A stretch of DNA of 59,947 bases, the filler included, from Platydemus manokwari (taxonomy: Eukaryota), in assembly GCA_037951405.1 (NCBI GenBank). It is 5 parts of 5 records of this genome, joined end to end, with 100 filler letters (N's around TTAATTAATTAA, not from the genome) between each part and the next. Parts side by side here need not be neighbours in the genome. Positions count along the whole stretch, not along the records: positions 25,879 to 36,717 come from JBBMOY010973306.1; 4 more parts are not named here. One strand, written 5' to 3'. Under the pieces are notes generated by a model that saw nothing but the letters and a program-made list of their open reading frames with translations, ran no database searches and was not told where the DNA came from. The stretch's first letter is position 1; each line of letters begins with the position of its first letter. Both the position numbers and the translations under genes were made by a program. This document shows, piece by piece, positions 13,491 to 56,098 of this stretch.

Positions 13491-13590
13491 NNNNNNNNNN
13501 NNNNNNNNNNNNNNNNNNNNNNNNNNNNNNNNNNTTAATTAATTAANNNNNNNNNNNNNNNNNNNNNNNNNNNNNNNNNNNNNNNNNNNN
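13491..13590. other. Artificial contig linker
   Basis: 44 N + TTAATTAATTAA (13535-13546; stop codons in all six frames) + 44 N. Confidence 0.97.
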
Positions 13591-25778: not shown

Positions 25779-25878
25779 NNNNNNNNNNNNNNNNNNNNNN
25801 NNNNNNNNNNNNNNNNNNNNNNTTAATTAATTAANNNNNNNNNNNNNNNNNNNNNNNNNNNNNNNNNNNNNNNNNNNN
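25779..25878. other. Artificial contig linker
   Basis: 44 N + TTAATTAATTAA (25823-25834) + 44 N. Confidence 0.97.
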
Positions 25879-26416
25879 TTACAACAGCAACAATAATAAT
25901 AACCATAAAATAACACTTTTCAAATAGTAATTTAGTTAGCCTTGTGGGCCAGTGGTTTCATGATTAGTAATTTTTGTATTATTTTATTATTAAGTATTGT
26001 TGATATTTACTAAATATAACATAATTAAATTCCTCAAGCCACGAAAATGTTTCTCTCCACCAAAAAGCTTTAAAACTACTGTTTTAGACAATAATATAAA
26101 AAAAGGTGACCACCGGTTTTACTAAGCTATCAGATGAAATATGGGCATATATATGTACTTAATTTTCGTTTTGAAGATTTCATTTTATTGGTCTTAAAGT
26201 CCTTTAATACATTGTTCAATGACAAAGAATTGTCAGAACTAATGCGGAATTCTGGAGGTCTAATTTTAGGATTTATTAATTTATAGATTTTGTAAATTAC
26301 CTAAGACTGTTTGTAAATGCTCTGAATTAGCTACTTGTTTAATAATTATTCATTAGAAAAATCACCAGAAACCTTAGTTAATTTACAGAAAAATTATTCG
26401 AACAATCGCTATAGAA

Positions 26417-26548
26417 NNNNNNNNNNNNNNNNNNNNNNNNNNNNNNNNNNNNNNNNNNNNNNNNNNNNNNNNNNNNNNNNNNNNNNNNNNNNNNNNNNNN
26501 NNNNNNNNNNNNNNNNNNNNNNNNNNNNNNNNNNNNNNNNNNNNNNNN
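26417..26548. other. Ordinary scaffold gap (132 N, no linker)
   Basis: Plain N run without the 12-mer. Confidence 0.95.
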
Positions 26549-26562
26549 ATATATCTGCAAAA

Positions 26563-27630
26563 ATGTCTAACCTAGTTCATAAGTTTGATAATAGTTCAGT
26601 AAACAATATGAAAGATGTTCAAGATTTGATGAATACTAAAGAACAAATTTATGATAGAAAATATATTAATTAGGAAGGTGATAGTATGAAGGGTAATTTG
26701 GAGTTAAACTATTATAGAATAACAAACCTGGGTGATCCTGAAAATGAAACGGATACTGTGAATAAACTATATGTGGAGAAATATGTGGAAAAGAATCTTG
26801 AAAAGCATCCTGAAAAATTTGAAAAAGAAATTACTAAAATTAATAAACTCATAGGGCTATTTTCTCGAGAGTCAAAACTAAGAACTGACTAAATTAAAGA
26901 TAACATAATGAATATTGTTAAACTTGATTTTTTGTGTAAATCAATAATTACAATGGTAAATGATAATAAAAAAATAAATAAAAAAGAAATAAATTTATTA
27001 TCTGAAAAATTATTATCTGAAGTTTAAAATTCATAGAAGGAAAAACAAAAGAAGAATTTATAGAGATGATGAAGAAAAAATTAAGGGTTCAATCTGGAAG
27101 GAATTAGAAAAATGAGGTAATCTCCTTAAAAAAACAAATAATAATATTAAAAAATTAAAAGAAGCTATTATTGATCTAAGAAAACCAATTAATGTTAATA
27201 TTTTTCACGATGGAGAAGAAAAGAAATTTATCCGTTCAAAGTTAAAGGAGGATAATATTGGTTGTGTTTTAAATAAAAATCTATTTTAAAAAGTAATTCA
27301 CCAAAAAAATATATAAAATATATTAAGATAATTAATAATTACCTTATAGATATGTGGAATAGTTTTGGGGAATTTTATAATAGTGAAAAGAATAATATTG
27401 GATTTGGTGGTAATTTTACTTATGAATCTAAATTTCCTCGAGGTTATAAACAGAGATTTAATTTTATATTTCTTGTTCAATATGTTAGTGGACAAGGAAG
27501 TTGTATTGGAACAAAAGATCGGACAGTTTTCTTGGATAATAATCATGGAACAGAATTTATATGTATGCTGAAAGAAGAAAAAAATGAAATCCAAGAATTA
27601 TTTGGAGATATTATCCTGAAATTATCCTGA
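26563..27630 (+). pseudogene. Decayed fibre/stalk-like gene of Polinton/adintovirus type
   Basis: One frame from ATG 26563 reads MSNLVHKF...RKYIN*EGDSMKGNLELNYYRITNLGDPENETDTVNKLYVE. This matches the G.L.M...RITNL.DP....DA.NK.YVD trimeric stalk motif. Downstream are broken K/E-rich and beta-rich fragments (27352-27630). Confidence 0.55.
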
Positions 27631-27760
27631 TATGTTGTATTATTAAAAAATTCTATTGAACAACGTAAACTATAGCATAAATTAAATTCAATCGAAAATT
27701 CTATTAACAAAAATAAAATTATGAAATAAAATTATTTAATTTCATATTTAATTTCAGAAA

Positions 27761-28410
27761 ATGACTGTGGGTTTGGAAGATCGTTCAATAATCCAAATGA
27801 TTACAATCCAACTGCTCCGATCTATTTAAACTATGGAATAAATCATGAAAATGATTTTTTAAAAGTAAAAATTAATAAACTTAGAATTGAGAACTTCTTA
27901 AATGAAAAAGAGTTTTAGAAGAATTATTAAGTTATAATAAGTTAAAAGTTGATGGTAGCCTGAAGTATTTTATTTTGACATCTGGTGGAGCTTTAACTAT
28001 AATGTCAAGTATTTTACCAGTTCTTTCGGATTTTGAAATTTTACCAACAATTACTTTATATTGTGAAGCTGGTTTTGGTTTATTTACAACAATAAATTCC
28101 GGTATTGGAGAATCATTTCATATTGGATTAAGTAGTAAAAAGAAAAAGATTTATAGGGAAATTTGTGAGGCGATTAAACATGGTATTGATAAATTGTATT
28201 TCTTTCAATTAAAAGCCTTAGAGGATAATATATTAACTGATGAAGAAATTAATAAAGCTAAAGATATTATAAAAGATTTACTTGAAGAAATTTTGTAGAT
28301 TTAAGAAAATGATATAAAATAGGAAAACAAATTGGGAAATGAAGCAAAGAAGGAATATAAAACAGAATTTGAACAGAAATATAGTGAAAATTCAAAGAAG
28401 TTAAAAAATA
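27761..28410 (+). pseudogene. Decayed Polinton-associated two-TM protein gene
   Basis: PTAP...FLKVKINKL..., a Gly/small-residue hydrophobic segment (LTSGGALTIMSSILPVL...GFGLFTTINSGIG), then KKKIYREI...IDKL...KALEDNILTDEE. This resembles the SKAL.D..ISDEEF protein I recall from invertebrate Polintons. Interrupted by stops and frameshifts. Confidence 0.5.
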
Positions 28411-28499
28411 AATAAAACTAAATAAATAAAAATGAATAAACGAAGTTAATTAACAAATATGTGTTTTTCTTATTTCATCTAATTTGTTAATCCATTCCA

Positions 28500-28700
28500 T
28501 ACACTTTAGACATTTTAATTGATGTCCATGTTGCCATGTTGCTATCCCATTATTTTCGATAAGTCTCTTATCATCAAATGGGTCTATGGGCATTTTTTCT
28601 TGAGAAAATAAATATATGATTTTCTGATTTTAAACCATAACTATGGCATTTTTCAAAATATTTTTTTTACTTGCATGGAAAATATTTCAAAACTATCTGT
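28500..28700 (-). pseudogene. C-terminus of a protein-primed DNA polymerase B (Polinton/Maverick)
   Basis: Minus strand reads IYLFSQEKMPIDPFDDKRLIENNGIATWQHGHQ (DDKR at 28564-28575). This matches the pPolB terminal motif K.AL...DDKR.I..DGI.TL.YGH. Confidence 0.75.
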
Positions 28701-28789
28701 ATTTTTTCATTTGCTTGTTATTGTTTATGTAAATATCTCTGGGAGTGGGAGTTGTACGGGTTTAGAGATTTTGACATTTGTTCATTCAA

Positions 28790-29500
28790 TATACAGACAT
28801 GGAGACAAACTAAACAAATAATCACATAATACATTTAGTTTTGTTCATTTATGAAATATTAAAAAAAAGCAAGTTAAGGTTTCATTAAGTTATTGTATTG
28901 TTAATACTATTTCAATAAATTTTTCAAGCCATGAGATTTTGCAGCTGTTTGTTTTTTATAAGTAGTTTCATCATTGAGACATGAACAGTATGTGTATTTG
29001 TGTATATGTGTATTTGTTTAAATATTATGATATTTGAAAAACATTTCAATAAATAATTATAAATAATAATTATAAATACTGATTATAAATAAGCATGCTG
29101 ATTTTCACATCAAATTACTTTATTTTTACTTCAGTATATTAAATATGTTATTCAATGTCATAGACAAACTGAACAAAAAATTAAACAATACTTACGTTTT
29201 TTTCATCTATAAAATATTTTAAAAAATGAGTAAGTTACTTGCTTCATTCTCTCGCTGTATTGAAAATATGACTTCTATGAATTATTCAATCCATGAGAAT
29301 TTGCAGCTGCATGTTATTTATAATCATATTCATCATTTAAACATGAACAGTGAAATTATATTCATATTTCATTTACTTATATTTCCATATTTTCAATATA
29401 ACATATCGAATAATTTAAACAAGATAATTAAATTCTTAATCTTTCAAAAATGTCATTTGAAAATAAATATAAGGATTAATATTGATATTATAAACACATA
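28790..29500 (-). repeat. Diverged ~360-bp tandem duplication
   Basis: CCATGAGA.TTTGCAGCTG...TCATCATT..ACATGAACAGT occurs at 28929 and 29291 (offset 362). AGACAAACT.AACAAA occurs at 28803 and 29162 (offset 359). Confidence 0.75.
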
Positions 29501-29741
29501 TTTATGAGAATCATTTTGATTCCCTCCTGTAAAAAATTAACAAATTAATCTTTACATAATTTTATTAATTTATCTATTATAAAACACCTGTGATAACAAT
29601 TCACACAACTTATAAATGATATGATACTTGTTCACAATTTAGTAATCAATGTCACTAGAAATAAATTATGATTAAACATCAACAATGAAATAAGCATTTA
29701 AATTTTGTTAAATAAAGTCAAATCTTCTTGGTAAACAAATT

Positions 29742-31135
29742 TCATTTACATTTATAATGTGAATTGTAAGACAATTTGTGACACCAATACAATTCCATAT
29801 TTTTATCTATAGAAACATAATAAGATGTTGCACAAAATCCAAATTTTTTCATGAAAACTTGTTGATTAGAATCTATTTTGCTGAAATTATCACCAGCAAA
29901 AATGTTACCCCAACTTCCGGTTTCCAATTTCTCCAACAATCGTTTATCATTTATGTTTATCCTTTGACCATCTTGCCTATACAGCACAACTAGATTGTTC
30001 CGTTGTAAACTTGATTGATATTTCGTGATGTCAATGTGACATACACGTAAATTAGTACAGTTATCATACGTCAACCACTTGGCGACATTGGGATTGAGAT
30101 TTTTATCGATATCAGTAAATTTTTCATCAATCATGCGATCAATAATTTCTTTTCTATGAAATGCTATAGCTCTTCCCTTTTTGTAAACACCTGTCATTAT
30201 AACCGTATGTTTTTCTTTTGAATTTAGTATTGGTTCAATATTTCTTTTATTTACAGGTGCAAAAATCGAGAATGATTGTTTATTATAGATTTTCTTGACA
30301 TTTCGTAGAATATTAAAACGATTTGATGATTGTAGGATTATCAGCTAAATTATAAATGCAATTTATTAAAAATGATATGGAAATATTTTATAAAATTAAT
30401 GAAACATTTTAACTAAATTATGTGATTTTTCTAAAAAATAACAATTTACTTTGTAAACAAAGTTTGAATTTTATAATTTATATTATGAAGTCATATCTCT
30501 GTATATTAAGATTTTAATTTTTTAATTTATTTTCATTTTATTTATTTACTATTGTTTGAATACAGAATATTTAAAGTTATGAGTTTAGCTTTCAATCGTT
30601 ACTTTCAATTTGCTCAATTTCTTTGAACAATCTAAAGGGCATAACGAATTACGATATAACATGCTTATGCTCTTTATGAAAACATTATAAATGGCGTCTC
30701 GTAATATTTCATTTCGTATTCATAATTTAAATTATTTACTTTTAACTTCATCATGAGATGTATTCAGAGGAACAGATATTGGAATAAAGAATAATAGTTA
30801 TGATAAAAACTTTCTACACAATAACTCCGTAAAAATTATAAAAATGTAATTTACAATAACATATAATAATATAATAAACAACAATCAATGTTACCTTATT
30901 CCATTCTTTATCTATAACATATATATGTATGATTCTTGGTTCTAATATCTCGTCACAATGATCAAATTGTCCGTATATCAAGCATTGATTGTCGATATAC
31001 ACGAATCCAAAACAATTTCTTGTCATGCATATCACAGCACAATTAAGAATATCTATATCGACAACAGTTTCAGTAAAATTACCAACCCATGTTAATTTCT
31101 TGAGAAATATATTTGATTCGGATTTTACCGATCTC
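29742..31135 (-). CDS. PAN/apple-like domain protein, 3' exons
   Basis: Exon ~31135-30895 (ILNCAVICMTRNCFGFVYIDNQCLIY, PAN-like Cys spacing) ends at AAG|gtaac. A phase-0 acceptor tttag opens an uninterrupted 603-nt terminal exon, 30344-29742. The 5' structure is unresolved. Confidence 0.5.
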
Positions 31136-32349
31136 TTTTAAAATTAGAAGCAATTGGAATGATATCTATGATTGTTAGAGGTATTTTATAAAGTGACTTC
31201 GAAATTATTGAATTCCAGTAACAAGGTACTTGTGTTTTCTCTCAAAATAAGCATATTAATATCTATTTAATAGATGGGATACGTAGATCCCAAATTTGTC
31301 GATGTTATAATGAAATGATTATTTTTTCCAAATCGAATTAATCATACAGGTGAAGATACCACAAATGTATAAGTTTCGGAATTTAAATAGGGACTTGGCT
31401 CAACAATTCAGCTTTGTCCTTTTTCGACTTTCTGTTTAAAGCACTTTTGGTAGACGGAGCTAACACAAAAAATTATATTAAAAAATATATTATATTAACA
31501 AACCCATTAGTAAACTAACAATCAATAAATAATGACAATTTTTATCAAAATAAAACCAGTAATTTAAAATAATTTATTGAGATACCACATAATTTGTAGA
31601 TTTCTCGCCAATGAAGAAATAACTTGCCATCGGAATATAATTGAAAGTCTAAATATCGTTGTAGAAATTATCGAAGAATGTTTTGTAAGTATCAAATATA
31701 GTATCAAAAATCATTCCTTCAAAATTGGGTTGAAGGACCCTTTTTCTTAACTTAAGCCGAAATATGAATTGAGATTATGTGGTATTTTCTGAAATCCATG
31801 TTAGTGAAATTGCAACAACATGAAATTTAAACAACAAAATAATATTTTAAAATGTGTTTAAATGAGGATTTTGCCGAATATTATAATTTTTTAAATGACT
31901 TCAAAATATAAATTATGTTACAATGTGAAATATAGATTATCTTTTTATATGATTCATTTTATTAAAATACATCCTAATGTATTTATAATTGCTTATAAGA
32001 AATTATGATTTCTTTTCTAATGTTCATAAAATAAACTTAGTTAATATATTAAATTTGATTTTATTGTGACCAATATTTATTGTTATTCATTACCAATTTA
32101 CAATGAATATCATACATATTTGTATTTATGATGAAGAAATAGTAGATTGGTATTTATAATTATTTATTCAAATGTTATACAAATATCATAATATTTAAAC
32201 AAATACGCACACAATATTTATATAGGTGCCAGCAAAAAATTTCGTGTTTATCAATCATAGCAAAAAAAATAATAAAAATAAATGAAGATCAAAGTTTGTA
32301 TTTTCTGGGGTAAATTTTTAACAAGACTGAAATTTATTCTGAAAAATGA

Positions 32350-33320
32350 AGTCAAAGTAATGGGAGATGCATTTTTTCATTGTAACTTTACCACAAAGCA
32401 ACCTATTGGCTGCCGAAATCCATCGTTTTCTTGTGAAATGTCATAAGCTTTTAGATGATACAGCAGATTATCAGAGTTTGCAGGGAATCGGCGAATTATT
32501 TTTAATCAAAAAGAAGGTTCAAAAAGACTAAGAACGAGCACTGCAGAATACAATGTCATTATTGAGCGTAAAGCAATTGAGGAAGACTGTCTCTTAAGCT
32601 GTATCCTCATTTCAAGAGTCACTTACATTGCAGAAACGAGTGATAACCTCATATTGAAATAAGAACTTGGAAAGAAGTTACATTGCAAAACAAATGGTTC
32701 CCTCGCACTAGGATGAATAATAAGAAGAGAATCAGTGTCAGTGGCTGTCAAAAAATGTTAAATGTTTATTCTGCAAGTAGGGCTCAAGTAAACATCATTG
32801 TCATCCATGAAAAATGTAATAATCTTTGAGACTAACGTTCAAAAGAATCAAACCGTTTTTGGGTGGGTGACACAGACGATGATCCAACGGTTCCTAGGAA
32901 GTCAATATCGAATCGCAAAAGCCTGATTATTGTTGATAACTGTTTGATTTCTATTTCCTCTTGTTCTAAATTTCTAAATCTAATAATTATATAAATAATA
33001 TGAATGGTACGCATAATAGTAAAATTCGCCATTTGTTCTTGTTGACGCAATGAATTCTGAGAATCAATGAAAGGTTGAGCTAATATCCAGAGACGATCCA
33101 AGAAGTTGAGAACCTGATGAGACCTATAATAATCCATTACAATTAATATGTTTCAAAATAAATTTATTGCTGATTGTCACCCTGGCGAATTACACTTAAA
33201 AAGGCTAAATCATTTAAATGAAACTAGACTTGTTTTTACGGATCAAAATCAAGTCCAGTGTTGATTGGAAGTCAATATTATTTTATTGAAATTTTCTAAC
33301 AAATTTATCAGCTTAAAAAA
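32350..33320 (+). mobile_element. Heavily decayed BEL/Pao LTR retrotransposon relic
   Basis: A Cys/His knuckle-like stretch (~32380-32450), RVTYIAE (protease flank), QTVFGWV (FGWV at 32858-32869), then ETRLVF and IILLKF appear in the order expected for Pao gag-PR-RT. Confidence 0.45.
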
Positions 33321-34119
33321 GGAATTAAAGCAAAATAGAAAATATCATAAAGAACGGAAATGATAAGTTTAAATAAGAAAAGCATATATTATATCAATCA
33401 ATGTAAACAATGTGATTGTTATTGCCTTATAACTAGGGCGAGGATTAGAATTAGAAAGTAAATAGAAGTATATAACAATATATGAATTTTAGATTTCCTT
33501 GATAATAAAACATGTTTAAAATGTAGAATTGTCAAATTAATAATGCATTTGAAAATAGCATTAAAAAGAGATTATTATGTATATATTATAGAGAAAAAAA
33601 AGGTAAGTAAACTGATAACAAGAAATATTATGATAAGGAATCATCTTTTATTAAATCATCCTCTTTGTTTGCATTTCATACTCAATGAGATCAGGATTAA
33701 ACAAATCTTTTAATCCTTCAGGTTGTACTAAAGAATTATTATTTAATTGGTCAGAATTTAAATTCATCAGAATCTATCAAATCAATTGAAGTAACTCAGA
33801 CAATGACTTATTTCTAGTAAAAACGTTAGAGAATACATGTATACGCAGTAAGTTCCCTAAGGTCGTCATGAAACGAATATTTTAAGATTAAAATTATAAT
33901 CCAAAAATAATAATTTTAAAATTAACTTAAAAATTAATTTTATTTATTTGAATTATTTTAAAATTTTAAAATTATTATCAGTTAATTTTAATTAATGCTC
34001 ACATTCCCATTTTCAAATTATTAATTTTCTCCACATGCATTTTTATTATAAGACCATAAAAATTTTGGTGTCACTTTCGTTGGGTTAGTTAGCAGAAGAA
34101 GCAGAATTTATAACAATAA

Positions 34120-34750
34120 AATGAAGATCTCCCCAAACTTTAAAGATTAGAATAACACAAGTAACAGAGGAAGTTTTAGCTCAAGTAATTAAGGATTTTT
34201 CAGCTCAATCAGATGATGATTTAATGAAAATTCAAGGAAGTGGGCGGAACATATTTGTATTAGGCAGTATAAAAGTAAATATTTCAAAGATCAATGTTTA
34301 ATCAGGTCATAGTTACCTTTACCTTTTTCAAGTAAGTCTTTATTAAATATAGAAAATTATGATAACAAATTTTCAAATCTAGCACATTTATATCCATTTG
34401 GTTTTAGATCTAACCAGAATAGATCGGGTCATTATATCAGATATTTTAATACAATAAATACAAATGATATAACATTTCCAACAGCAATTAATCTGATTTA
34501 TAAATTTGAAAATAATAATAATTTTAAAATAAATGTTTATGTATCAAATAAACGATCACAAATAAAGAATTTAAACGGAGCAAACATGCGTTAATATACT
34601 AAAAGAAAAGATTATCAAATATATCCAATTTATATATCACAAATAGAAATTTATACTCAGAATATAAAACTTCTATATTTAGAAAAAGGAGATAAAACAC
34701 ACTATGTTTATATAAAAAACTTGAATACGCTTATGAAGGGTGAAATAAGC
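34120..34750 (+). pseudogene. N-terminal region of a Polinton/adintovirus pPolB
   Basis: QGSGRNI..LGSIKVNISKINV*SGHSY, INIENYDNK, NDITFPTAINLIYKFENNNNFKINVY and IYPIYIS...NIKLLYLEKGDKTHYVYIKNLNTL follow, in order, the recalled consensus GSGW...INI.KY.PL.GSSY...IN..N.DN.CF...I.FP....I.KFE..N...INVY...HY..IKNL.RL. Confidence 0.8.
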
Positions 34751-34799
34751 TAATGGTTAAGAAATAATAAAAAATTAAATATATACTACAATCAAATAT

Positions 34800-36717
34800 T
34801 AAAAAATGGATCAAACGAAAATATCAGCCTTTTTCGCTATCCGGAAGAAGAATTTCAAACTCAAAACTATTACAAGAAAAGACCATCCTATGCAGAACAA
34901 GTTCAAAATAATAGACAATGGTATCATACATGATCTAAATCTGGACAACGTTATAATAAAGATGGAAAATTTTACCAGCAAAATAGAAAACAATTTAATA
35001 ATCAAAATGAAGAATTCAATAATAATAAACAGGACAGAAGACCACGTTTTAATCAAGAAGAATCGAAATACTACAATAATCGACAAGCTAAAAAAACAAG
35101 TCAAGAGTTCTATAGATACCAGCATGTAGAGGACTATCCCAAAAAGACAACATTTGGCAATAATCGAAATGAACGGAATATAAGCAGAAATGGGCAATTC
35201 AACTTTAGAAATAACAGAATCCAATCTAGACAAACAAGACTTAAATATCCTAACTCAAACAGCAACAATGACCTTAAACAGGAAGACACCAGAAACACAG
35301 GAAGCACTGCCAACAAAGACATAATTGACAATACTAACACTAACATTGAAAACACTACGCGCAATGCACACACCACACACAATACAAACACTGGTAGCAC
35401 TGCAAACACGAATAATAAAACACTCATTCCTAACATACCCAACCGCTCATTAAAGTTGCACTTGACAACACAATCATAATCAAGATTGAGCCAATGAAAT
35501 GCGAAAATCCAAACATAAGCATAAGAAAATTAAAGGAGGCAATCATAGGCGTAATAGGTCCAAGAGCAACCAATGACACGATAACGAAACGCACTAAACA
35601 AAACAAAAGTTTCAAGACACAAACACAAAAATTGCCTCAGATACAAATAACACAAACTGAAAATCATCAAAAGGACACCTAAATCATCACTAACAGTACA
35701 GTTAGTCCAGAAAGCACAGTCGATTTAGACAAGACCCCAAAGGGCACACAAGAAAAACAACAAGAAAAACAACAAGAAAAACAACACAAGAAATCATTAC
35801 ACAAGAAAAACTACACAAGAAAAACTACACAAGAAATCATTACACAAGAAATCATTACACGAGAAATCATTACACAAGAAATCATTACACAAGAAAAATT
35901 ACACAAAAAAACTACACAAGAAAAACTACACAAGAAATCATTACACAAGAAATCCTTACACAAGAAATCCTTACACAAGAAATCCTTACACAAGAAATCC
36001 TTACACAAGAAATCATTACACAAGAAAAACTACACAAAAAAAACTACACAAGAAATCATTACACAAGAAATCATTAAACAAGAAAAACTACACAAGAAAA
36101 ACTACACAAGAAAAACTACACAACAAATCATTACACAAGAAATCATTACACAAGAAAAACTACACAAAAAAAACTACACAAGAAAAACTACACAAGAAAA
36201 ACAACACAAGAAATCCTTACACAAGAAATCCTTACACAAGAAATCCTTACACAAGAAATCCTTACACATCCACCCCACTTACAAACAAATCACTCAAGCT
36301 CGATTGATGTGGTAGCACTGAGGGGGTCACCAACATTAACACCACCACTTCAAGATATGACCTCTCTAAGGACCAGATAGACACATTCATTCAGGACAAC
36401 ATCCCAGAACATGAAGTTTATTATCTAGGTTCATACATTACCGAAACTATAATCACATTCAATTTAAACACTGAAGAAGCTAACATTTGCATACCGACAT
36501 TAAACACTAGTAAGACATTTATAACTCCAATAAACATTAGGAACATTCACTGGGTCCTCTCACATAGATCTAGAGATGAAGGAATGGAATTGATAGATCC
36601 GATGGGAGACCAAAGTGCTTACCTCCTCGAAGCATCTGCGAAAGCCAACAAAATAATCAGTGTACTAAAGCAATCACAATACTGGGCAAACACGACATTA
36701 AATGGTCCAAAGAAATA
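34800..36717 (+). mobile_element. 5' part of a putative non-LTR element carrying a Ulp1/C48-like protease domain
   Basis: Abrupt shift to an A/C-rich strand. An N/Q/R/Y-rich frame (KRPSYAEQVQNNRQ...) is followed by a minisatellite, then an open frame from 36308 to the gap: DLSKDQIDTFI...FITPINIRNIHWVL...ELIDPMG...NGPKK, matching Ulp1 PIN...HW.L...D. Confidence 0.6.
35751..36267 (+). repeat. Minisatellite of interspersed 14- and 15-bp variants (roughly 35 units)
   Basis: Units AAATCATTACACAAG, AAATCCTTACACAAG and AAAAACTACACAAG, preceded by 12-bp CAAGAAAAACAA units. Confidence 0.95.
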
Positions 36718-36817
36718 NNNNNNNNNNNNNNNNNNNNNNNNNNNNNNNNNNNNNNNNNNNNTTAATTAATTAANNNNNNNNNNNNNNNNNNNNNNNNNNN
36801 NNNNNNNNNNNNNNNNN
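36718..36817. other. Artificial contig linker
   Basis: 44 N + TTAATTAATTAA (36762-36773) + 44 N. Confidence 0.97.
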
Positions 36818-38346: not shown

Positions 38347-40564
38347 TCCTGCTAGACTGAGTTTCTGCGAGTTTCCACCACTAATAACAACTCTAGAATA
38401 ACTGTGATAATTTGCTCTACCACTTAATGATAGACTTTGTCCGTCTAGTATTACAAAAAACTTGTTTTATAAATAAATATTAGTATAAATAATTCATGCA
38501 TGATATCAAGCAATTACGGTTTGAATATCTTAAGGATTTTCAAAGTTTATATAAAGGGATATAAAAAAATTTATTTAATCGGTACCCATGCATATTCTTC
38601 GTCCAAACAATATTTCAAATGGAGAATGTTGAATTGAACTTTGATATGTTGCATTCATGATAAATTCTATCCGTGCTATTAATTTATCCCAAGCCTGTTT
38701 CTCTAATGCCATCGTTGTTACCACCATGTCTCGGACAGTACTAATCATCCTTTCAGATAAGCCTGATGTTGGTATGTGGAGGTAAATTCTTGTTTTATTC
38801 AAACTCGTGTTGCTAATTCTTTCATTTCCCTTCCTTCAAAGACTCTACCCCCATCAGTGAATATTGATTTTGGAGCCCCATAGATCCATTTATCGATGAT
38901 AGCCTTTGAAATACTTGTTTCATCTTGTCGAATAAGTGACACCAAATTTACTAACTTACTGAATCTATCTACTATAACCAACAAATATCTGGTTTTAGTC
39001 ATAAATTACCCAAAGTGTGCAACATCAACAACGATCTGTTCCAAAGTCCAAAACTATTCCCTGGGAATCATCATCTATTTAGCTCGTCCAGTGTATACCT
39101 TCCATTTAGCACAAATATCACAATTCTGTACTTCATGATCGATGCTTCGCGTCTTATTTGGCCAGAAGTAAATTTTCTAAATGTAATCTACCAATTTCTT
39201 ATTACCAATATGGCACAACTCCTCATGGAGGTATCTCGTAAGATTCTGCCAATAAATCTCTGGTACCAAAATTCTCTTCTTTCCATTCTAATTATACACC
39301 ACCATATCTTCAAACAATTCATATTTTCCCTAACCATTGTCGAATGGAACCAACGACAGCATCTTCTTGTTGAATCTTTCTTAGTTCGTCATTATTTGCA
39401 ATTGAATGCTCGACAACACTAATAAACCGAATTTTTGGTTTACCTTCTTCAGCTCCCCGGTGCTGAGTTAAGAATTGTGAACAAAATGCTTCGCCTATAC
39501 TTGAGAGTCCATCCGCATTTTCATGATCTGATCCTTTCCGATATTGAAGTTCAAAATTGAATCCGGATAAGTTTGCAAACCATGTTTGAAAGTGAGAGCT
39601 TATCGGTTTGTTAGTTTTCTTCATGTATGTCAAGTCTTTGTGATCGGTGCTAGTCACAAATTTCCTTCCCAACAGATAATGTTTAAAATGCATAGTAAAT
39701 GTCGTGAATTGCCAAAAGCTCTTTCCTCGTTACGCAATATCCTTTTCCATGACTGTTAAGAGTTCTAGAAGCATAGGCTACTACTCTCTCTTTTCCATTT
39801 TCATCCAGCTGGCTTTGAACGCCCCCAATCACTCCATAACTAACGTCGGGGTCTAAAATCATCTCTTTGTTTGGATCTGGAAAGACCAAATTTGGAGCTG
39901 TGCATAATTGTTCTTTAAGGTATCCAAAACTTTCCTCACACTCTGTACTCCACTCTAACTTCTTGTCACTTCCAGTCATCATGGCATATAACGGAGCTGT
40001 AATTAATTCGCAGTTCTTAATATATCTTCTGTAATAATTGCGCAATCCTAGGAACGACCTCAACTGAGTGATGCAACTAGGTTTAATTGCTTGAAATGCT
40101 TCTCATTAGTTTGTATACCTTCTGCACTGATCGTATGATCCAGGAAATTCAATTTTCTAATGCCAAAAGTGCGTTCCTCAGGATTGATTTTCAAACCTGA
40201 TGATTCAATCAACCTGAATACCTTTTTTAGTTTCTCGTTGTGTTCCTCGACCGTTTTTCCATACATTAAAATATCGTCCAGATAAACAAGAACGCCTTTG
40301 TAAATCAAGTCCTTCAATCGCATTAATTAGACTCTAAAACGTTGCTGGCGCGGTACATAATCCAAAAGATAGTCTATTAAAACAAAACTGCCCAGTTCTA
40401 GTGGTGAACGCCGTTTTCATTTTATAATCTTCCTCAAGTTTGACCTGATAATATGCTTGGCCTAAATCTATCGTGAAGAAAACTGTGGCTCCATACACTG
40501 AGTCCAATAACGTTTGGTTATCAAGTACCGGGAATAAAACCTCTCAGTCGGTTCGTTTAACTTT

Positions 40565-41636
40565 CTGAAATCTAAACACATCCTGATCGATCCATCTTTC
40601 TTAGGAACCACGACCAAAGGAGAGTTCCAAGGTGTTATGACATTACTATTTAGAAAATTTTCTATCAATTCTTGAATTTTGGTTTCTAAATTAATTGTTG
40701 TCTTCTGGGGTTTTTGGCAATAGGTGAATGCTTTCTCTTCCTCTTGCCGTCTTTCATCTTTACTTCTATTCTATCTCTAGTTTATATATGTCCTATTGAC
40801 TCAACCACATTAAAAAGATAGTTACAGTAGGTTGATTCCGGTTTTTTTTCTCTTCCATGGAAAGTGAGCTAACACAATCACTTGCTTCACTTTCAGTTTG
40901 AATATCGGTACTTTGTCGTCATTAGTTTTTAAGTCTAAACACATCGTGTTCGATCCATCTTTCTTAGAATCTACGACTTAAGGAGAGTTCCAAGGGCTCT
41001 TGCAAGGTGTTATGACATTACTTCACCAAATCTGTTAGTCCCAAATCTAACTGAGGAGCCATAAAAATTGAGCCATTTTCTTTTATACACTTCTTCAATG
41101 AAATATCGTTCTTATCAGCAATGCAATTCAGTGCCATTTCGATTCTGTCTTGGTCGCTGCATTTCTTTCCCACATTCTTGGCATCAATTGATTTTATCCC
41201 TGCAAGTCTTCATCATATCAACTGGTGATATATCTTTTACTACAATGATCTCCTTTACTAGAATTTTGTTGTTCCAAACTATTGGGATGTTTATTTTCCC
41301 TAGACACGATTTAATCTGCGGCTCTCCAATGCGCCTCCAATTGCTATCCTTCATTACTGTTATTGATGCACCAGAATCCCATAACATTTCAATTTGTGTA
41401 CCGTTGCAATAAATTTTACTCCACTGTCTACCATCTGCTTTCTGATACATCTGTGAATGCTTCCTCTTCCTCTTGCCGTCTTTCATCTTTACTTCTATTC
41501 TATCTCTAGCTTATATATGTGCTATTGACTCAACCACACTGACGAGATAGTCACAGAAGGTTGATTCCGGTTTTTTTCTCTTCCATGGAAAGTGAGCTAA
41601 CACAATCACTTGCTTCACTTTCGGTTTGAATATCGG
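40565..41636 (-). repeat. Internal tandem duplication in the Gypsy element with reciprocal deletions
   Basis: 40724-40908 matches 41453-41636 (gag-pol junction), and ~40930-41022 matches ~40565-40646 (RT start). Confidence 0.92.
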
Positions 41637-42634
41637 CTTTACCTTCTTCGTCATGGATGCACAATATTCTCCTAGGACTATTGTAACTAGGCTTTCTGGC
41701 TAAATGGCATTCTCTACACGAATGTCCTTCTTTACCGCATATCAAGCATTTATTCCGCAGTGGACATTCAATCTTCCGGTGTCCAAGCTTACCACAGCAA
41801 AACTAGCAGTGGGTTTCAAATAATCAACACGTGGTGTAGGTTTTCCTCTGCAATCGTTGTAGAATTTAGAAGCAATAGCTTTCATTGATCTTGTTGGTCT
41901 CTCGTTGTTTGGAGATTCTGTGCGATTAGCTGATGCTCGATGATATTCTTTTACACCAAAATCTCATTCCTGCAAAATTGGACTTGGCTTTTTGAACGAG
42001 GTCTCCTGCTAAAAGGTCTTTCTTAGTTCACTTTGAAATACTGACTGATGGCGTTTATGGGCTTCGTCGGAGTTTACTTTTCAAAATTGACAGCTAGCTC
42101 TCTTCTTCTATCGTCGGACATTGCAGAATCGACAGTAAATGACTCTTTCAATTTCTTGCTATTTAGACCTTGCATAATAAATAATCTTGAAATTTCTTCA
42201 AGAGTGTTTTTCTTGTCAAACACTTCCGAAATTAGCTTATTTACCCGAAGTTCAAAACTGCGATATTTTTCATCTGGTCTTTGTTGCATTGCTGCCAAAT
42301 CTTGAACCTTGTCGTATACTGTTTTGGCATGTGAAAATGTTTCTAAAAACCATTTCTCAATTTCTTCATTTGAAACAACCTTTTTGAAACTGCTGAATTC
42401 TTGCCACAGCTGTTTGGAGTCATCTCTCAAAAGCATGTCAAATGCAAATGATAGTTCCATTTGTTTAAAAATCGCGAAATCTTTTGTTGTCTGGAACCAT
42501 TTCTCAGCGTCTTGTATTGATTAATCGAAGAATGATGGTTTCGGAATTAATAACGCCTGCGTTTTTGTGGCAGATTCACAAAAAAATGTTCTGCCTCTCT
42601 TCTCGTTTAGCTCTAGTCAGAGCGTTAATTTCGG

Positions 42635-50734: not shown

Positions 50735-50834
50735 NNNNNNNNNNNNNNNNNNNNNNNNNNNNNNNNNNNNNNNNNNNNTTAATTAATTAANNNNNNNNNN
50801 NNNNNNNNNNNNNNNNNNNNNNNNNNNNNNNNNN
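50735..50834. other. Artificial contig linker
   Basis: 44 N + TTAATTAATTAA (50779-50790) + 44 N. Confidence 0.97.
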
Positions 50835-51395: not shown

Positions 51396-51773
51396 TCAAC
51401 CACAACTCACAATTAAATTTAATATATAAACATTTATTGCATATTTTTCATGATAAATATATCTTCTCTGTATATTTTTTACTTTATCAGGAACTTCGAA
51501 AAATCGATAATAGGATTATTCATTCAACTGAAGTAGTTTTATGTTGAAACAATATTTCATAAAATATTTGATAAATTTGATAAATATTTATTTAAAAACA
51601 ACAATATCAAGCGAAATCCAATTGCTGGAGAAAATTTCAAATGTGAAATTATTTATTTGTCTCTCATAAGAAAGTCAATTTGATTTGTCAGCAAGTCTAT
51701 TTGAAGGAAGCAATTAAATATTAATGCATATAAACACAGGAACTTTGTAATTAATTATCACATTTCATCAGCC

Positions 51774-53135
51774 ATGGGAATCGATAGAGCCTTCATGAGA
51801 AATCTGATACCAGCTAAAGCTTTTTCAGTTTGTGTTCTTTTAGTTATAACAGTAAACATGATATTTATCGGAGGTAAAAGAAGAAATTTCGGATTATTTG
51901 TATCGGCATTTTACAGATCCTTCAATGGAACGAGTATGTTTGAATTAAATATGATTGGAGATAGTTATTCATCATTGGCCTTCATACTGATGCCCTTTAT
52001 GACTTCAGCAATAGCATACTACGGTAGTGCCTATCAAATGTCAATGTTTCTGGCTGCAGTTTTTATATTTTGCAGTTCCATGCTTTCTTCCTTGGTTATG
52101 AGTCCGTGGTTATTATTTATTACCCACACATTTTTACATGGAATAGGTTCGGGTTTGGTACTTTCAACATGTGCTTTGGTTGTCACTGATTATTTCAACA
52201 AAAAACACCCATATCATGTATTAGCCACCAGCTTGGCATCGTCCGGTGCGTATGGAGTTCTCATTTTAACTCCTCTTTTTGCACATTTGATCCAAGCATA
52301 TGGTTGGCGTTCAGCTTTCCAAATTATTGGCTGTCTTTTCGTAGTAGTGATTGCTTTTGCTGTTGTTTTCTTTGTACCAGTCGAAGATTCGTATTCTGAA
52401 ATTGGTGATTCCAATCCAACTGATAAAACGACCTGGAAATTTTGTACTTTGCAACATATTAAAGAAAATAAGCAGACAATCATTTGGTTTATGGATAGAG
52501 CATTAAATGGTGCGATATTCTTTGCTCTTCTGATGAATTTGACTGAATACCGACGCGAAGCTGGAATTATTGATATGGAAATTGAAAGTGGATCGACAAT
52601 AAATATAATGTTAGGTATTGGTGAATGTATAGCTTTTACGATAACTATATTCATTGGAGATCAGCTGAGAGGTAGTTTGGTAATGATCCAATTATTCGGA
52701 GCATGTTTTAGTTTTCTGAGTACGATTTTAATGAGAGCAGTTACTCAAAACATATCTGCAACAAATGTAATAACTGTTTTGTTAGGTGCATCGGTTGGCC
52801 TGGGAAATTGTGTTTTGTATGCATCATCGGCAGAAGCTATGAATATCGATGGATCCATTTCTTTGCCGATGAGCAAATTAATGAGTGCCATCGGAGCTCT
52901 ATTTTCTCCAATATTTTCCGGAATGATTATAGATAAATATGGATTTGAAGGATTGTTTGTATCATTGATTTTATTGAGTTTTATAAGGGTTATTGGATTG
53001 GGATTTATAAATTTTATGCTTCATCAAAAGAAGCAATTATTGAAGAAACAAGAATCATACAATCGATTGGAAGATGCTGAAGAAACTACATCATTGAATG
53101 AAATGAATTATAAAGTCACCCATTCGACAATTTAA
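51774..53135 (+). CDS. MFS transporter, divergent monocarboxylate-transporter (SLC16)-like, intronless
   Basis: 453-aa ORF with about 12 hydrophobic segments: LHGIGSGL, DYFNKKH, YGWRSAFQIIG, SPIFSGMIIDKYG. Confidence 0.85.
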   Translation: MGIDRAFMRNLIPAKAFSVCVLLVITVNMIFIGGKRRNFGLFVSAFYRSFNGTSMFELNMIGDSYSSLAFILMPFMTSAIAYYGSAYQMSMFLAAVFIFCSSMLSSLVMSPWLLFITHTFLHGIGSGLVLSTCALVVTDYFNKKHPYHVLATSLASSGAYGVLILTPLFAHLIQAYGWRSAFQIIGCLFVVVIAFAVVFFVPVEDSYSEIGDSNPTDKTTWKFCTLQHIKENKQTIIWFMDRALNGAIFFALLMNLTEYRREAGIIDMEIESGSTINIMLGIGECIAFTITIFIGDQLRGSLVMIQLFGACFSFLSTILMRAVTQNISATNVITVLLGASVGLGNCVLYASSAEAMNIDGSISLPMSKLMSAIGALFSPIFSGMIIDKYGFEGLFVSLILLSFIRVIGLGFINFMLHQKKQLLKKQESYNRLEDAEETTSLNEMNYKVTHSTI

Positions 53136-54418: not shown

Positions 54419-56098
54419 TTATTTCTTTTTTTGACTTTGACGAAAATCTTTTGATAAGTATGCTGAAAACATTATTAATCCACTTACAAAAATCAAACAA
54501 CCACTGGTGACAAAGGACCATTCAAAAGTATTTGTCAAATCATAAATAAGCCCAGATAAAGGCGAACATATAAGAAGACCGATTGCTTGGACAAAGCAAG
54601 TCAATCCAAGACCTCGACTGAAATGATTCAATCCTACAATCTTCAATAATACAACTGGTGTTAGGGTTGTGTATGATCCAATGAAAAGTCCAAATCCAAT
54701 TGTATACACCAACATCAGTGGATATATATAAGCTACAAAGCTGAAAAGTATGAAGCATCCACTTAATATCAATGATATACAATATAATAAGTAAGTATTT
54801 ATCCATTTCTTCGAACCCAAGTATCCAAAACATAATCGGCCTATTGTATTTCCAATTCCGATTGCAACTAATAAGAAAGCAGCATTTGATTCTTCAATAC
54901 CAGAATTCATTGCTCTTACTTTTGCAAATATGAAAGTCGTATCATGTCCGAGATTGGTGAGAAAATTTCCGCATATAAATATCAGAAAGGCCGGAATCTT
55001 TAAAAGTTCCAATAAACCCTCATTTTTCGATATATCATTTTGTTTTTCTGCCTTGATTTCTTCATTAAGTTGATGAGATTTGTTTGGTGAATATTGATTT
55101 TCTAAATTATCTTTAATACTCATTCCTGAAAGTGTAGAAACGGTTAATTTGGACAGAAATTTTTGACTCTCGCACAGTTTTTCATTCATTTCTCTCTCGT
55201 TAATATATTCTAGGGTTGATTGAATACTCTTATTATCTTCTTCGGTATCACTAATTGATTTCGATGCAATATTGGCCATTGATATGAATTGATTAATTTC
55301 TGATTGTGGTGATGATATTGTTTGAATTTCTTCATCTTTTAATGTGTTTTCTAAATGATCTGTAGTTTCTTTGTAATTTTTCTTGTTTCTTTTATTTTTA
55401 TTAGATATAGGTTTAAAAGAAAGAGCAAAGATTCCACAACCAAAAAACAGAAATCCATAAATTAACATTGAAAATCTCCATCCATACCAACGAATGAGTT
55501 TTTCACATAAAGGTGTAATTATAAATGCTGCAATACCAGTTCCACTGGTAAATATTCCGAGAACCATTGAGAGACGTTTATCAAAATATGTCGACAAAAC
55601 TACAGTTGTACACATCATCACTATTCCCATACCAGTACCAGTTAAAATAGAAGATAGAAATAGAAACCACAAAGGTGAATAGAAATATGGTGCAGCAAAA
55701 ACTATAGCAGCAAGAACTGATCCGATAATTGCTACTACACGATTACTGAGTTTAATGGTTAAAAGACTTGCTATTGGTGCAGATGCCAAATTCATGGCTG
55801 ACATCAATGAAGCCATCCAACTCATTGTACTTTGTGATGTCTTGTATTCCATAACTAAAGGATTCAAAAATAATCCAAAAGTCACAATTAATCCACCACA
55901 TACTATTCTCATTGCCAAAGAAGCCAACAATACAAACCAACCCCATCCACCATCAGGAATGTCTGAATTTCTTGAATTTCCTGATTTTTCTTCGAAATTG
56001 ATTTTGGTCGTTTCCACATCATTTTTAGAATGATCAGGAATAAAATGTACAATTTCGCTATCAGCGACTTCTTTAACTTCACAATCGACTGATTCCAT
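54419..56098 (-). CDS. Monocarboxylate transporter (SLC16 family MFS), intronless
   Basis: 559-aa ORF with the PDGGWGW signature, YFDKRLS, YGWRFS, a large central loop, NTIGRLCFGYLG and SGLIYDLT. Confidence 0.93.
   Translation of the reverse strand: MESVDCEVKEVADSEIVHFIPDHSKNDVETTKINFEEKSGNSRNSDIPDGGWGWFVLLASLAMRIVCGGLIVTFGLFLNPLVMEYKTSQSTMSWMASLMSAMNLASAPIASLLTIKLSNRVVAIIGSVLAAIVFAAPYFYSPLWFLFLSSILTGTGMGIVMMCTTVVLSTYFDKRLSMVLGIFTSGTGIAAFIITPLCEKLIRWYGWRFSMLIYGFLFFGCGIFALSFKPISNKNKRNKKNYKETTDHLENTLKDEEIQTISSPQSEINQFISMANIASKSISDTEEDNKSIQSTLEYINEREMNEKLCESQKFLSKLTVSTLSGMSIKDNLENQYSPNKSHQLNEEIKAEKQNDISKNEGLLELLKIPAFLIFICGNFLTNLGHDTTFIFAKVRAMNSGIEESNAAFLLVAIGIGNTIGRLCFGYLGSKKWINTYLLYCISLILSGCFILFSFVAYIYPLMLVYTIGFGLFIGSYTTLTPVVLLKIVGLNHFSRGLGLTCFVQAIGLLICSPLSGLIYDLTNTFEWSFVTSGCLIFVSGLIMFSAYLSKDFRQSQKKK

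Follow-up and report, generated by a model that had tools for sequence, protein, structure and literature searches.

Probable Remains of a Polinton/Adintovirus-Type Virus in an Animal Contig

The window analysed here, a stretch of DNA of 59,947 nucleotides, contains decayed pieces of what is, with a probability of about 0.88, a Polinton/adintovirus-type virus. The virus was probably carried into an animal germ line by its integrase, and what is left of it is now likely inert. These pieces are probably the fossil of a common type of integrated virus rather than of a novel one. The host is taken to be an animal because the window also holds spliced PEPCK-GTP, ion-channel, and tubulin genes. The four motif modules reported in a first-pass annotation were all found where it had placed them, and its 10.8-kb segment corresponds to the contig part at 25879–36717, which holds all four between two N44-TTAATTAATTAA-N44 spacers (the window consists of 9–14-kb stretches joined by spacers). 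A gap of 132 N (26417–26548) adjoins the fibre-type piece, and 26549–36717 is free of N.

The viral pieces form two blocks. The left one (26.56–28.72 kb) comprises the fibre-type gene, the two-TM gene, and a polymerase end facing back at the latter, in the same gene order as in intact relatives. The right one (34.13–34.75 kb), 5.4 kb away, is the N-region of the protein-primed family B polymerase (pPolB) on the opposite strand. There are stops or frameshifts in every viral piece, and the G+C of the blocks (0.21–0.26) lies inside the range of the surrounding DNA. The features are as follows.

26563–27020, plus strand: broken fibre-type gene, N-terminal part with fibre-stalk motif (26659–26808); PHROG 2710, tail fibre, E 5.7e-8
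27021–27700, plus strand: candidate continuation of the fibre-type gene across frameshifts, from open runs by frame; 117-codon open stretch at 27277–27627
27761–28415, plus strand: broken two-TM accessory gene of the KALEDNILTDEE family; identity 85% to P0001 and 67% to P0002, both intact
28450–28719, minus strand: pPolB C-terminal end; profile match 28519–28719, positions 1121–1186 of 1190, E 7.7e-6
28803–29351, no strand: tandem non-coding unit of ~190 nt, two copies 76% alike, from a repeat search
29742–31137, minus strand: probable intact, spliced host gene; one exon stops at 30895 (GT donor, phase 0), and the terminal exon is 30344–29742 (AG acceptor, phase 0, 200 codons)
33360–33540, plus strand: possible zinc-finger scrap, CxxC ... 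KTCxKCR; L015 has the same pattern, pairwise E 0.02 over 13 residues
34128–34750, plus strand: pPolB N-region; profile match 34301–34744, positions 189–320, E 3.3e-25

The Viral Pieces

The pPolB is present as fragments only. A profile of 45 Polinton-type polymerases (1190 positions) matched both at 28.5–28.7 kb and at 34.1–34.75 kb, the pair of matches set beforehand as a test of the first-pass reading; positions 321–1120 are absent, and the best control values were E 1.3 for the reversed window and 1.5–6 for five shuffles. The N-region match extends to 34128 in another frame, with a frame change near 34.31 kb plus stops, and homology ceases at about 34750. At E <= 1e-3, 90 of 120 pPolBs match this piece, and a direct search with it against longer proteins found none of 282 candidates to be related. 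The C-end is short (best single-sequence E 1.2e-4), and the best single matches of the two pieces are different proteins. In a quick-search tree (82 of 140 rows, 144 columns), where the window piece falls in no starred group, the N-piece and the pPolB of the metagenome element L004 form a loose group (SH-aLRT 85–87, unstarred). By its position and the domain order outlined in 10.1101/2024.03.18.585575, the N-region likely represents the end of the terminal-protein domain followed by a vOTU protease domain. In the alignment of this predicted vOTU domain the His column is kept and the catalytic Cys column is a gap; the Cys motif is kept in 133 of 139 relatives. In the living virus, the N-region would have primed replication, and its vOTU protease would have released it; the fibre-type protein would have attached to host cells, and the two-TM protein with its helical hairpin would have acted on membranes.

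The frame of the fibre-type gene opens with the ATG at 26563 and is interrupted by in-frame stops near 26671 and 26890; the PHROG 2710 match spans residues 37–82, and 10 PHROG families match at E <= 0.1. A two-sequence profile from Polinton-like loci matches 26659–26778 (E 1.7e-8, reversed control 6), and tblastn gives E 2e-4 and 5e-5 against ORFs of two such loci, L022 and L023. The gene likely continues through 27021–27700, a region with no Pfam, PHROG, NCBIfam, or Atlas match and a fold model of pLDDT 39, so that calling it a fibre head would be a guess. A lectin-type head at 27277–27627 was rejected (head-domain profile 1.7 bits versus up to 2.8 in shuffles, and no Atlas match).

The two-TM gene has KALEDNILTDEE at 28212–28247, shows two hydrophobic peaks (1.75 and 1.31), and is matched by its family profile at E 1e-39. 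It is 85% identical to the intact metagenome protein P0001 over 143 residues, and 91% over 130 aligned columns; an intact protein this similar in a metagenome assembly means that a close relative is functional now or was recently. The window piece is sister to P0001 (SH-aLRT 97) on a branch of 0.10, versus 0.033 for the intact sister. It is damaged by a 6-residue deletion, a change of frame near 27.91 kb, and, in the matched part after 28295, three in-frame stops. An open stretch of 130 codons (27906–28295) retains both hydrophobic segments; a run of this length occurs in 10 of 200 shuffles.

The best BFVD matches of the predicted P0002 fold are iridovirus proteins (Foldseek E 8e-5 to 9e-4); hence the two-TM gene alone is not Polinton-specific. 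Among the three Atlas clusters listed for the family, two are largely viral, Nucleocytoviricota being commonest among the few members with a phylum. No SLATT Pfam domain was found among 40 family members, and the P0002 model has no PDB match by Foldseek at E <= 0.001. The GasderminX accessory gene of Beta adintoviruses, a candidate identity for the two-TM gene, is unconfirmed as a label: there is no gasdermin among the listed PDB matches, and VIA-align retrieved generic helical bundles only (best Z 10.1, rmsd 3.7, 149 aligned).

The neighbourhoods of two-TM relatives, together with the pPolB profile matches, bear out the Polinton/adintovirus origin first proposed. Neither outcome that would have refuted it, best matches to unrelated host proteins or a lack of pPolB matches for the two polymerase pieces, was observed. 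Among 11 short loci with close two-TM relatives, two have pPolB tail-to-tail with the two-TM gene as in the window: L004 (whole pPolB) and L005 (C-end). The stop codons are 16 and 25 nt apart in these, versus 34 nt here. Other neighbours are one double-jelly-roll capsid end, one integrase end, and one fibre motif; a Polinton core gene adjoins the two-TM gene in 4 of the 11, and 6 have none of these neighbours. Of 26 Polinton-like loci in IMG/VR, 2 have a distant homologue within the virion module (E 2e-12 and 9e-12), and in one of them, L013, it is surrounded by rve integrase, A32 ATPase, DJR capsid, and pPolB.

Missing Modules and the DNA between the Blocks

No integrase, packaging ATPase, capsid, or AGT-type terminal repeat had been recognised in the first-pass annotation, and profiles and a repeat search in the contig agree. 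The 20-sequence rve integrase profile has no match in 25879–36717. Its sole matches in the window, at 38611–39032 (minus strand), belong to a gypsy retrotransposon beyond the spacer, where they follow RT, RNase H, and Integrase_H2C2, and were rejected as a Polinton integrase. Best E values were 0.55 in the window (reversed control 1.3) for the A32/FtsK packaging ATPase (19 sequences), 2.2 for the double-jelly-roll major capsid (10 sequences, PF21738 confirmed on L013), 0.27 for a presumed penton cluster, and 0.85 for the adenain-type maturation protease (16 protease-like ORFs). The last profile gave no match at 36308–36715, which was dropped as a candidate Polinton protease. The contig has no run of (AGT)3, (ACT)3, (AG)5, or (CT)5, end motifs taken from PMC8097293, and no terminal repeat or target-site duplication marking integration; its longest inverted pair (64 nt) flanks the host gene. 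Any terminus on the left would be hidden, because the left end falls in the 132-N gap. Since the fossil is truncated, its missing integrase allows no conclusion about the ancestor.

General searches named little. Pfam named none of 42 six-frame pieces of the contig and gave no viral family on 19 pieces, NCBIfam gave one weak match among 9 proteins, no Rfam family was found in the contig and no tRNA in the window, and no RNA run is among the listed sequencing runs matching the stretch.

Most of 28.75–34.1 kb, which the first-pass annotation had passed over, is taken up by non-viral DNA, including an intact exon of 200 codons. An open run as long as this terminal exon arises in only 1 of 200 shuffles, and 29742–31137 is likely an intact spliced host gene. 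It has no match from the Polinton profiles, no Pfam, PDB, or NCBIfam name, and one weak tblastn match (E 0.004). As to a viral origin of the exon, IMG/VR gave a count of one related stretch with no locus displayed, and a search for exact 24-nt matches gave 0. A 64-nt part of the tandem unit (29007–29070) recurs inverted at 32146–32209 (91%), and the unit is probably a repeat of the host rather than a terminal one. The zinc-finger scrap may, on its motif pattern, belong to the right block.

The single continuous virus once proposed for 26563–34750 is not supported: the strands of the two pPolB pieces are opposite, the core lacks about 800 codons, and an intact, likely spliced host gene intervenes.

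One Broken Copy, Two Insertions, or Another Origin

The favoured geometry, at about an even chance, is a single copy that was split by an inversion accompanied by deletion. After entry, the inserted copy would have decayed neutrally; an inversion of roughly 28.75–34.75 kb would have carried the pPolB start together with the flanking host gene, and the polymerase core would have been lost at the break. Nearly as likely are two sister insertions, also of Polinton origin, made independently on either side of the host gene and each reduced to scrap. The opposite strands, the 5.4-kb separation that contains repeats and a likely host gene in intact form, the lack of a shared terminus or target-site duplication, and the different best single matches of the two pPolB pieces are all as one would expect from two events. 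One origin is argued for because the pPolB pieces are complementary rather than overlapping, the N-piece breaks off at the place expected after an inversion, and the N-piece groups, if loosely, with the L004 pPolB, which is linked to a two-TM gene. Moreover, two insertions would both be needed within 6 kb, while profile searches of the other 49 kb of the window found no further Polinton-type match and no second copy.

Quite improbable is an assembly artefact or a contaminant, with viral scraps from another organism joined to host DNA. The piecing of the window with spacers and the gap beside the fibre-type block leave room for it, only one sequencing run contains the stretch (0.56 of its words), and contaminant adintovirus contigs are described by Starrett et al. 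(PMC8502044). However, the N-free sequence from 26549 onward and the G+C of the viral blocks speak against it, and stops and frameshifts would not be expected in a free contaminant virus, whose genes would be intact.

Still less probable is an origin of the scraps from a large, iridovirus-like DNA virus or from host genes. The P0002 fold matches and the Atlas clusters would suit such a source, but the matches of both polymerase pieces are to protein-primed PolB, L004 and L005 share the tail-to-tail layout, and close two-TM relatives adjoin DJR capsid and integrase ends. Least credible of all is co-option of the two-TM gene by the host to make a shortened membrane protein, as its open stretch with both hydrophobic segments might suggest: a frame change removed the start, a deletion and stops followed, the intact sister has a branch only a third as long, and such a run is found by chance in shuffles.

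Relation to Known Elements

The decayed Polinton/adintovirus-type pieces share with adintoviruses and animal Polintons, as described in PMC8502044, a pPolB with a predicted N-terminal OTU-type domain and accessory membrane-type and fibre-type genes; in contrast, integrase, ATPase, hexon, penton, adenain, and ITR are not left in the contig. By way of its relatives, the class is likely Beta adintovirus (PolB divergent from Pfam PF03175), the polymerase core itself being absent here. PF03175 has no match in the intact relatives L004 and L013, and among 120 pPolB homologues PF02945 is found in 35 and PF03175 in 10. As for the GasderminX label, L013 pairs the distant two-TM homologue with PLA2, an Alpha adintovirus hallmark.

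Degraded adintovirus copies are endogenised in many animals (Starrett et al. 2021, PMC8502044), pPolB1-type Polintons are reported from 17 of 23 invertebrate phyla (PMC10748475), and 96% of vertebrate Maverick copies are defective (Barreat and Katzourakis 2021, PMC8097293), so that inert debris such as this is the norm. The vertebrate fossils described there also have stops, frameshifts, insertions, and no discernible TIRs. Here, however, far less of the element is left, the pPolB halves face opposite ways, and the host is likely an AT-rich invertebrate with short introns. Degraded copies being documented across animals (PMC8502044; PMC8097293), the locus has little significance alone.

The remaining interest lies in the closest relatives, which are unnamed metagenome proteins, and in a two-TM family without assigned function. 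The metagenome elements L004, L005, L002, and L010 and the proteins P0001 and P0002 have this family in common with the window; unlike the window, the four elements, on contigs of 1–5 kb, have largely open genes. The earlier suggestion of an undescribed lineage gains some slight support from these unnamed relatives, but the pPolB type is common to elements in mollusc, echinoderm, insect, and spider genomes. IMG/VR searches with the two-TM piece, the pPolB N-piece, alignment A2, and the L004 pPolB counted 0 of 10, 0 of 45, 0 of 238, and 0 of 2 stretches as relatives.

Like the two-TM protein, uncharacterised proteins of invertebrate iridoviruses and viral SLATT-domain (2TM effector) proteins form a long helical hairpin carrying two hydrophobic segments. 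By Foldseek, E values are lower for the former (those given above) than for SLATT (0.05–0.3), identities are 15–19%, and rmsd is 8–21 Å; because helical bundles match loosely, this kinship is a lead only. Among the literature matches listed, none combines SLATT and Polinton, and none of those on small-genome animal parasites deals with elements of this kind, a negative that lends support to no reading. It is doubtful that the pieces stem from an unnamed, probably still circulating Polinton-type sub-lineage, known to date from short metagenome contigs only, in a compact-genome animal, with a SLATT-like membrane effector, not a gasdermin, shared with invertebrate iridoviruses.

If the inversion reading is true, the locus would be a small example of a Polinton-type element marking a host rearrangement. 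It can also be used as a host marker, tying an unnamed metagenome group to an animal genome.

Polymerase pieces and the layout of the relic

The contig at 25879-36717 contains debris that derives from, and works like, an animal Polinton/adintovirus; it is a real relic and a further case of a known kind of element, not one continuous hidden virus. Fossils of this type are common. The four motifs that the first-pass annotation had joined into one decayed virus over 26563..34750 were all found where it had placed them, and its assignment to the Polinton/adintovirus kind is right, given the matches to a profile of the protein-primed polymerase (pPolB) and the relatives of the two-TM gene that lie beside Polinton core genes. 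The single virus was overstated, as the two pPolB pieces are on opposite strands with a likely host gene between them. No motif received a name in the Pfam scan; the fibre-type gene matched PHROG tail-fibre families (best E 5.7e-8).

A search with the pPolB of a related metagenome locus (L004) gave 1017 relatives, the best 120 of which include proteins of mollusc, echinoderm, insect, and spider genomes. A profile built from 45 of these 120 matched both regions proposed as pPolB, 28.5-28.7 kb and 34.1-34.75 kb.

Matches of the pPolB profile in the contig
28519-28719, minus strand: C-terminal end (piece D), profile positions 1121-1186, E 7.7e-6
34301-34744, plus strand: N-region (piece E), profile positions 189-320, E 3.3e-25

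Controls (the reversed window and five shuffles) reached E 1.3-6 at best. Piece E was matched by 90 of the 120 single proteins at E ≤ 1e-3, its nearest relative being 40% identical, and the best single-protein match of piece D had E 1.2e-4. The exonuclease and polymerase core, which occupies profile positions 321-1120, is absent. By its position and the invariant Cys/His of the alignment, piece E likely comprises the end of the terminal-protein domain and the vOTU protease, the latter described in 10.1101/2024.03.18.585575. The predicted catalytic Cys column is a gap in piece E, and the Cys motif is kept in 133 of 139 relatives. The polymerase is likely of the PF03175-divergent (Beta) class.

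The present layout would result if a single copy had been split by an inversion spanning about 28.75-34.75 kb and had lost its polymerase core; we put the probability of this at about 0.5. The two pieces are complementary, the remaining 49 kb have no further Polinton-type match, and piece E groups loosely with the L004 pPolB (SH-aLRT 85-87, in a quick tree of 82 of 140 rows and 144 columns). All three points likewise speak against two insertions, which would leave the same layout and which we rank only slightly below one copy: no termini were found and the best matches of the two pieces differ, both of which favour two insertions and, with the weakness of the tree, count against one copy. An assembly artefact is a very improbable source of the layout.

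Within the 5.4 kb between the pPolB pieces are a duplicated unit of ~190 nt, a 64-nt inverted pair, an exon whose GT donor (phase 0) is at 30895, and a terminal exon of 200 codons preceded by an AG acceptor (phase 0), an open run of this length occurring in 1 of 200 shuffles. The two exons likely form a host gene, whose product has no name from Pfam, PDB, or NCBIfam and one possible relative in IMG/VR. The Cys spacing of the exon at 30895-31137 (minus) is what we take to be reminiscent of a PAN/apple domain, with no support from Pfam or PDB. The G+C-richer stretch at 32300-33152 (minus) contains an open frame of 106 codons (32835-33152), along with protein-like frames that are broken by stops; it matches no family and is a host exon or pseudogene.

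The two-TM gene and its neighbourhood

Over 143 residues, the two-TM gene shares 85% identity with one intact protein (P0001), and it is 67% identical to another (P0002). Of the 50%-identity representatives, 176 are relatives of P0002, and 111 of the 168 collected relatives match the window only at 27.7-28.45 kb; the close ones looked up had no informative names. The copy is damaged: its frame changes near 27.91 kb, it has lost 6 residues, and it contains stops. Its branch is 0.10 long, against 0.033 for intact P0001 (SH-aLRT 97; quick tree of 45 rows), as expected for neutral decay following a fairly recent insertion.

In metagenome contigs, at least 588 pattern matches led to 10 two-TM loci among the matches listed, and GTDB added one (n = 11). 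The gene lies tail-to-tail with a whole 1342-residue pPolB in L004 and with a pPolB end in L005, the stop-to-stop gaps being 16 and 25 nt, and 34 nt in the window. Other loci have a capsid end upstream of it (L002; PF21738 E 4e-4, profile E 2.5e-33), an integrase end beside it (L010), or a fibre motif on the same locus (L009), and 6 of the 11 have none of these four. Among 26 IMG/VR loci found by pPolB alignment, 19 have the integrase cluster, 18 the ATPase cluster, and two a distant two-TM homolog, which in L013 lies among rve integrase, A32 ATPase, double-jelly-roll capsid, and pPolB. Since its relatives lie beside pPolB, capsid, integrase, and ATPase genes, we class the two-TM gene as an accessory gene of Polinton type. 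Another homolog (L037, 597-1019) comes from a contig of 3.2 kb that is assigned to a Chlamydiae MAG; this contig likely belongs to a eukaryotic virus and was mis-binned.

The predicted structure of P0002 (pLDDT 84) has three long helices. In BFVD the folds closest to it belong to iridovirus proteins (E 8e-5 to 9e-4), with weaker matches to SLATT-domain proteins, and PDB gave generic bundles only. The hydrophobic hairpin of the protein, and the position of its gene within the virion module, suggest that it may be membrane-active. A suspected identity with GasderminX, an adintovirus gene of Starrett et al. (PMC8502044 section 3.2), was not confirmed.

Polinton parts absent from the contig

An animal Polinton/adintovirus has integrase, ATPase, capsid, protease, and TIR, whereas the present sequence lacks all five; comparison was with PMC8502044, PMC8097293, PMC10748475, 10.1101/2024.03.18.585575, and 10.1101/2025.02.07.637071. 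Profiles of integrase, ATPase, capsid, presumed penton, and protease have no match in the contig, nor were AG/AGT-type ends or a long inverted repeat at its edges found, so that profile and repeat searches bear out the absences already remarked in the first-pass annotation. These parts are missing because no more than scraps of the element survive.

Directly after the pPolB piece, 34750-36717 (plus) holds open frames of A/C-rich, low-complexity sequence, 33 tandem copies of a 15-nt unit (35784-36268), and a 136-codon frame (36308-36715, plus) cut by the spacer. The HW...DxxG spacing of this frame presumably recalls an Ulp1-type cysteine protease; it matched no Pfam, PDB, or Polinton-protease profile. 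A separate mobile element may occupy this stretch and have truncated pPolB.

Surrounding DNA

Sequence in the window is rich in A and T (G+C 0.22-0.39 per kb), and the contig has a 132-N gap at 26417-26548. Immediately left of the gap, a frameshifted stretch at 26100-26230 (plus), which may or may not be part of the element, bears what we take to be a resemblance to an F-box motif; its scanned pieces had no Pfam match.

Other features of the window
13491-13590, 25779-25878, 36718-36817, 50735-50834: the same 100-nt spacer at each of four places, N44-TTAATTAATTAA-N44, with stop codons in every frame
38611-42520, minus strand: decayed Ty3/gypsy retrotransposon with gag-like region, RT, RNase H, H2C2 finger, and rve integrase

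The spacers are artificial joins, and adjacency across any of them is thus not evidence of neighbourhood. The window's only integrase, at 38611-39032 (minus), was rejected as a Polinton integrase and is that of the gypsy element, because RT, RNase H, and an H2C2 finger precede it. This element has an internal 185-nt duplication (40724-40908 and 41453-41636, 94% alike). A PEPCK-GTP match (E 1.5e-76), whose gene is interrupted by a short in-frame intron, an ion-channel piece, and tubulin suggest, from sequence, an animal host with compact genes. Two long intron-free ORFs facing each other, at 51705-53135 (plus) and 54419-56098 (minus), whose exact sequences are absent from the protein collection searched, have by eye the look of monocarboxylate-type transporters.
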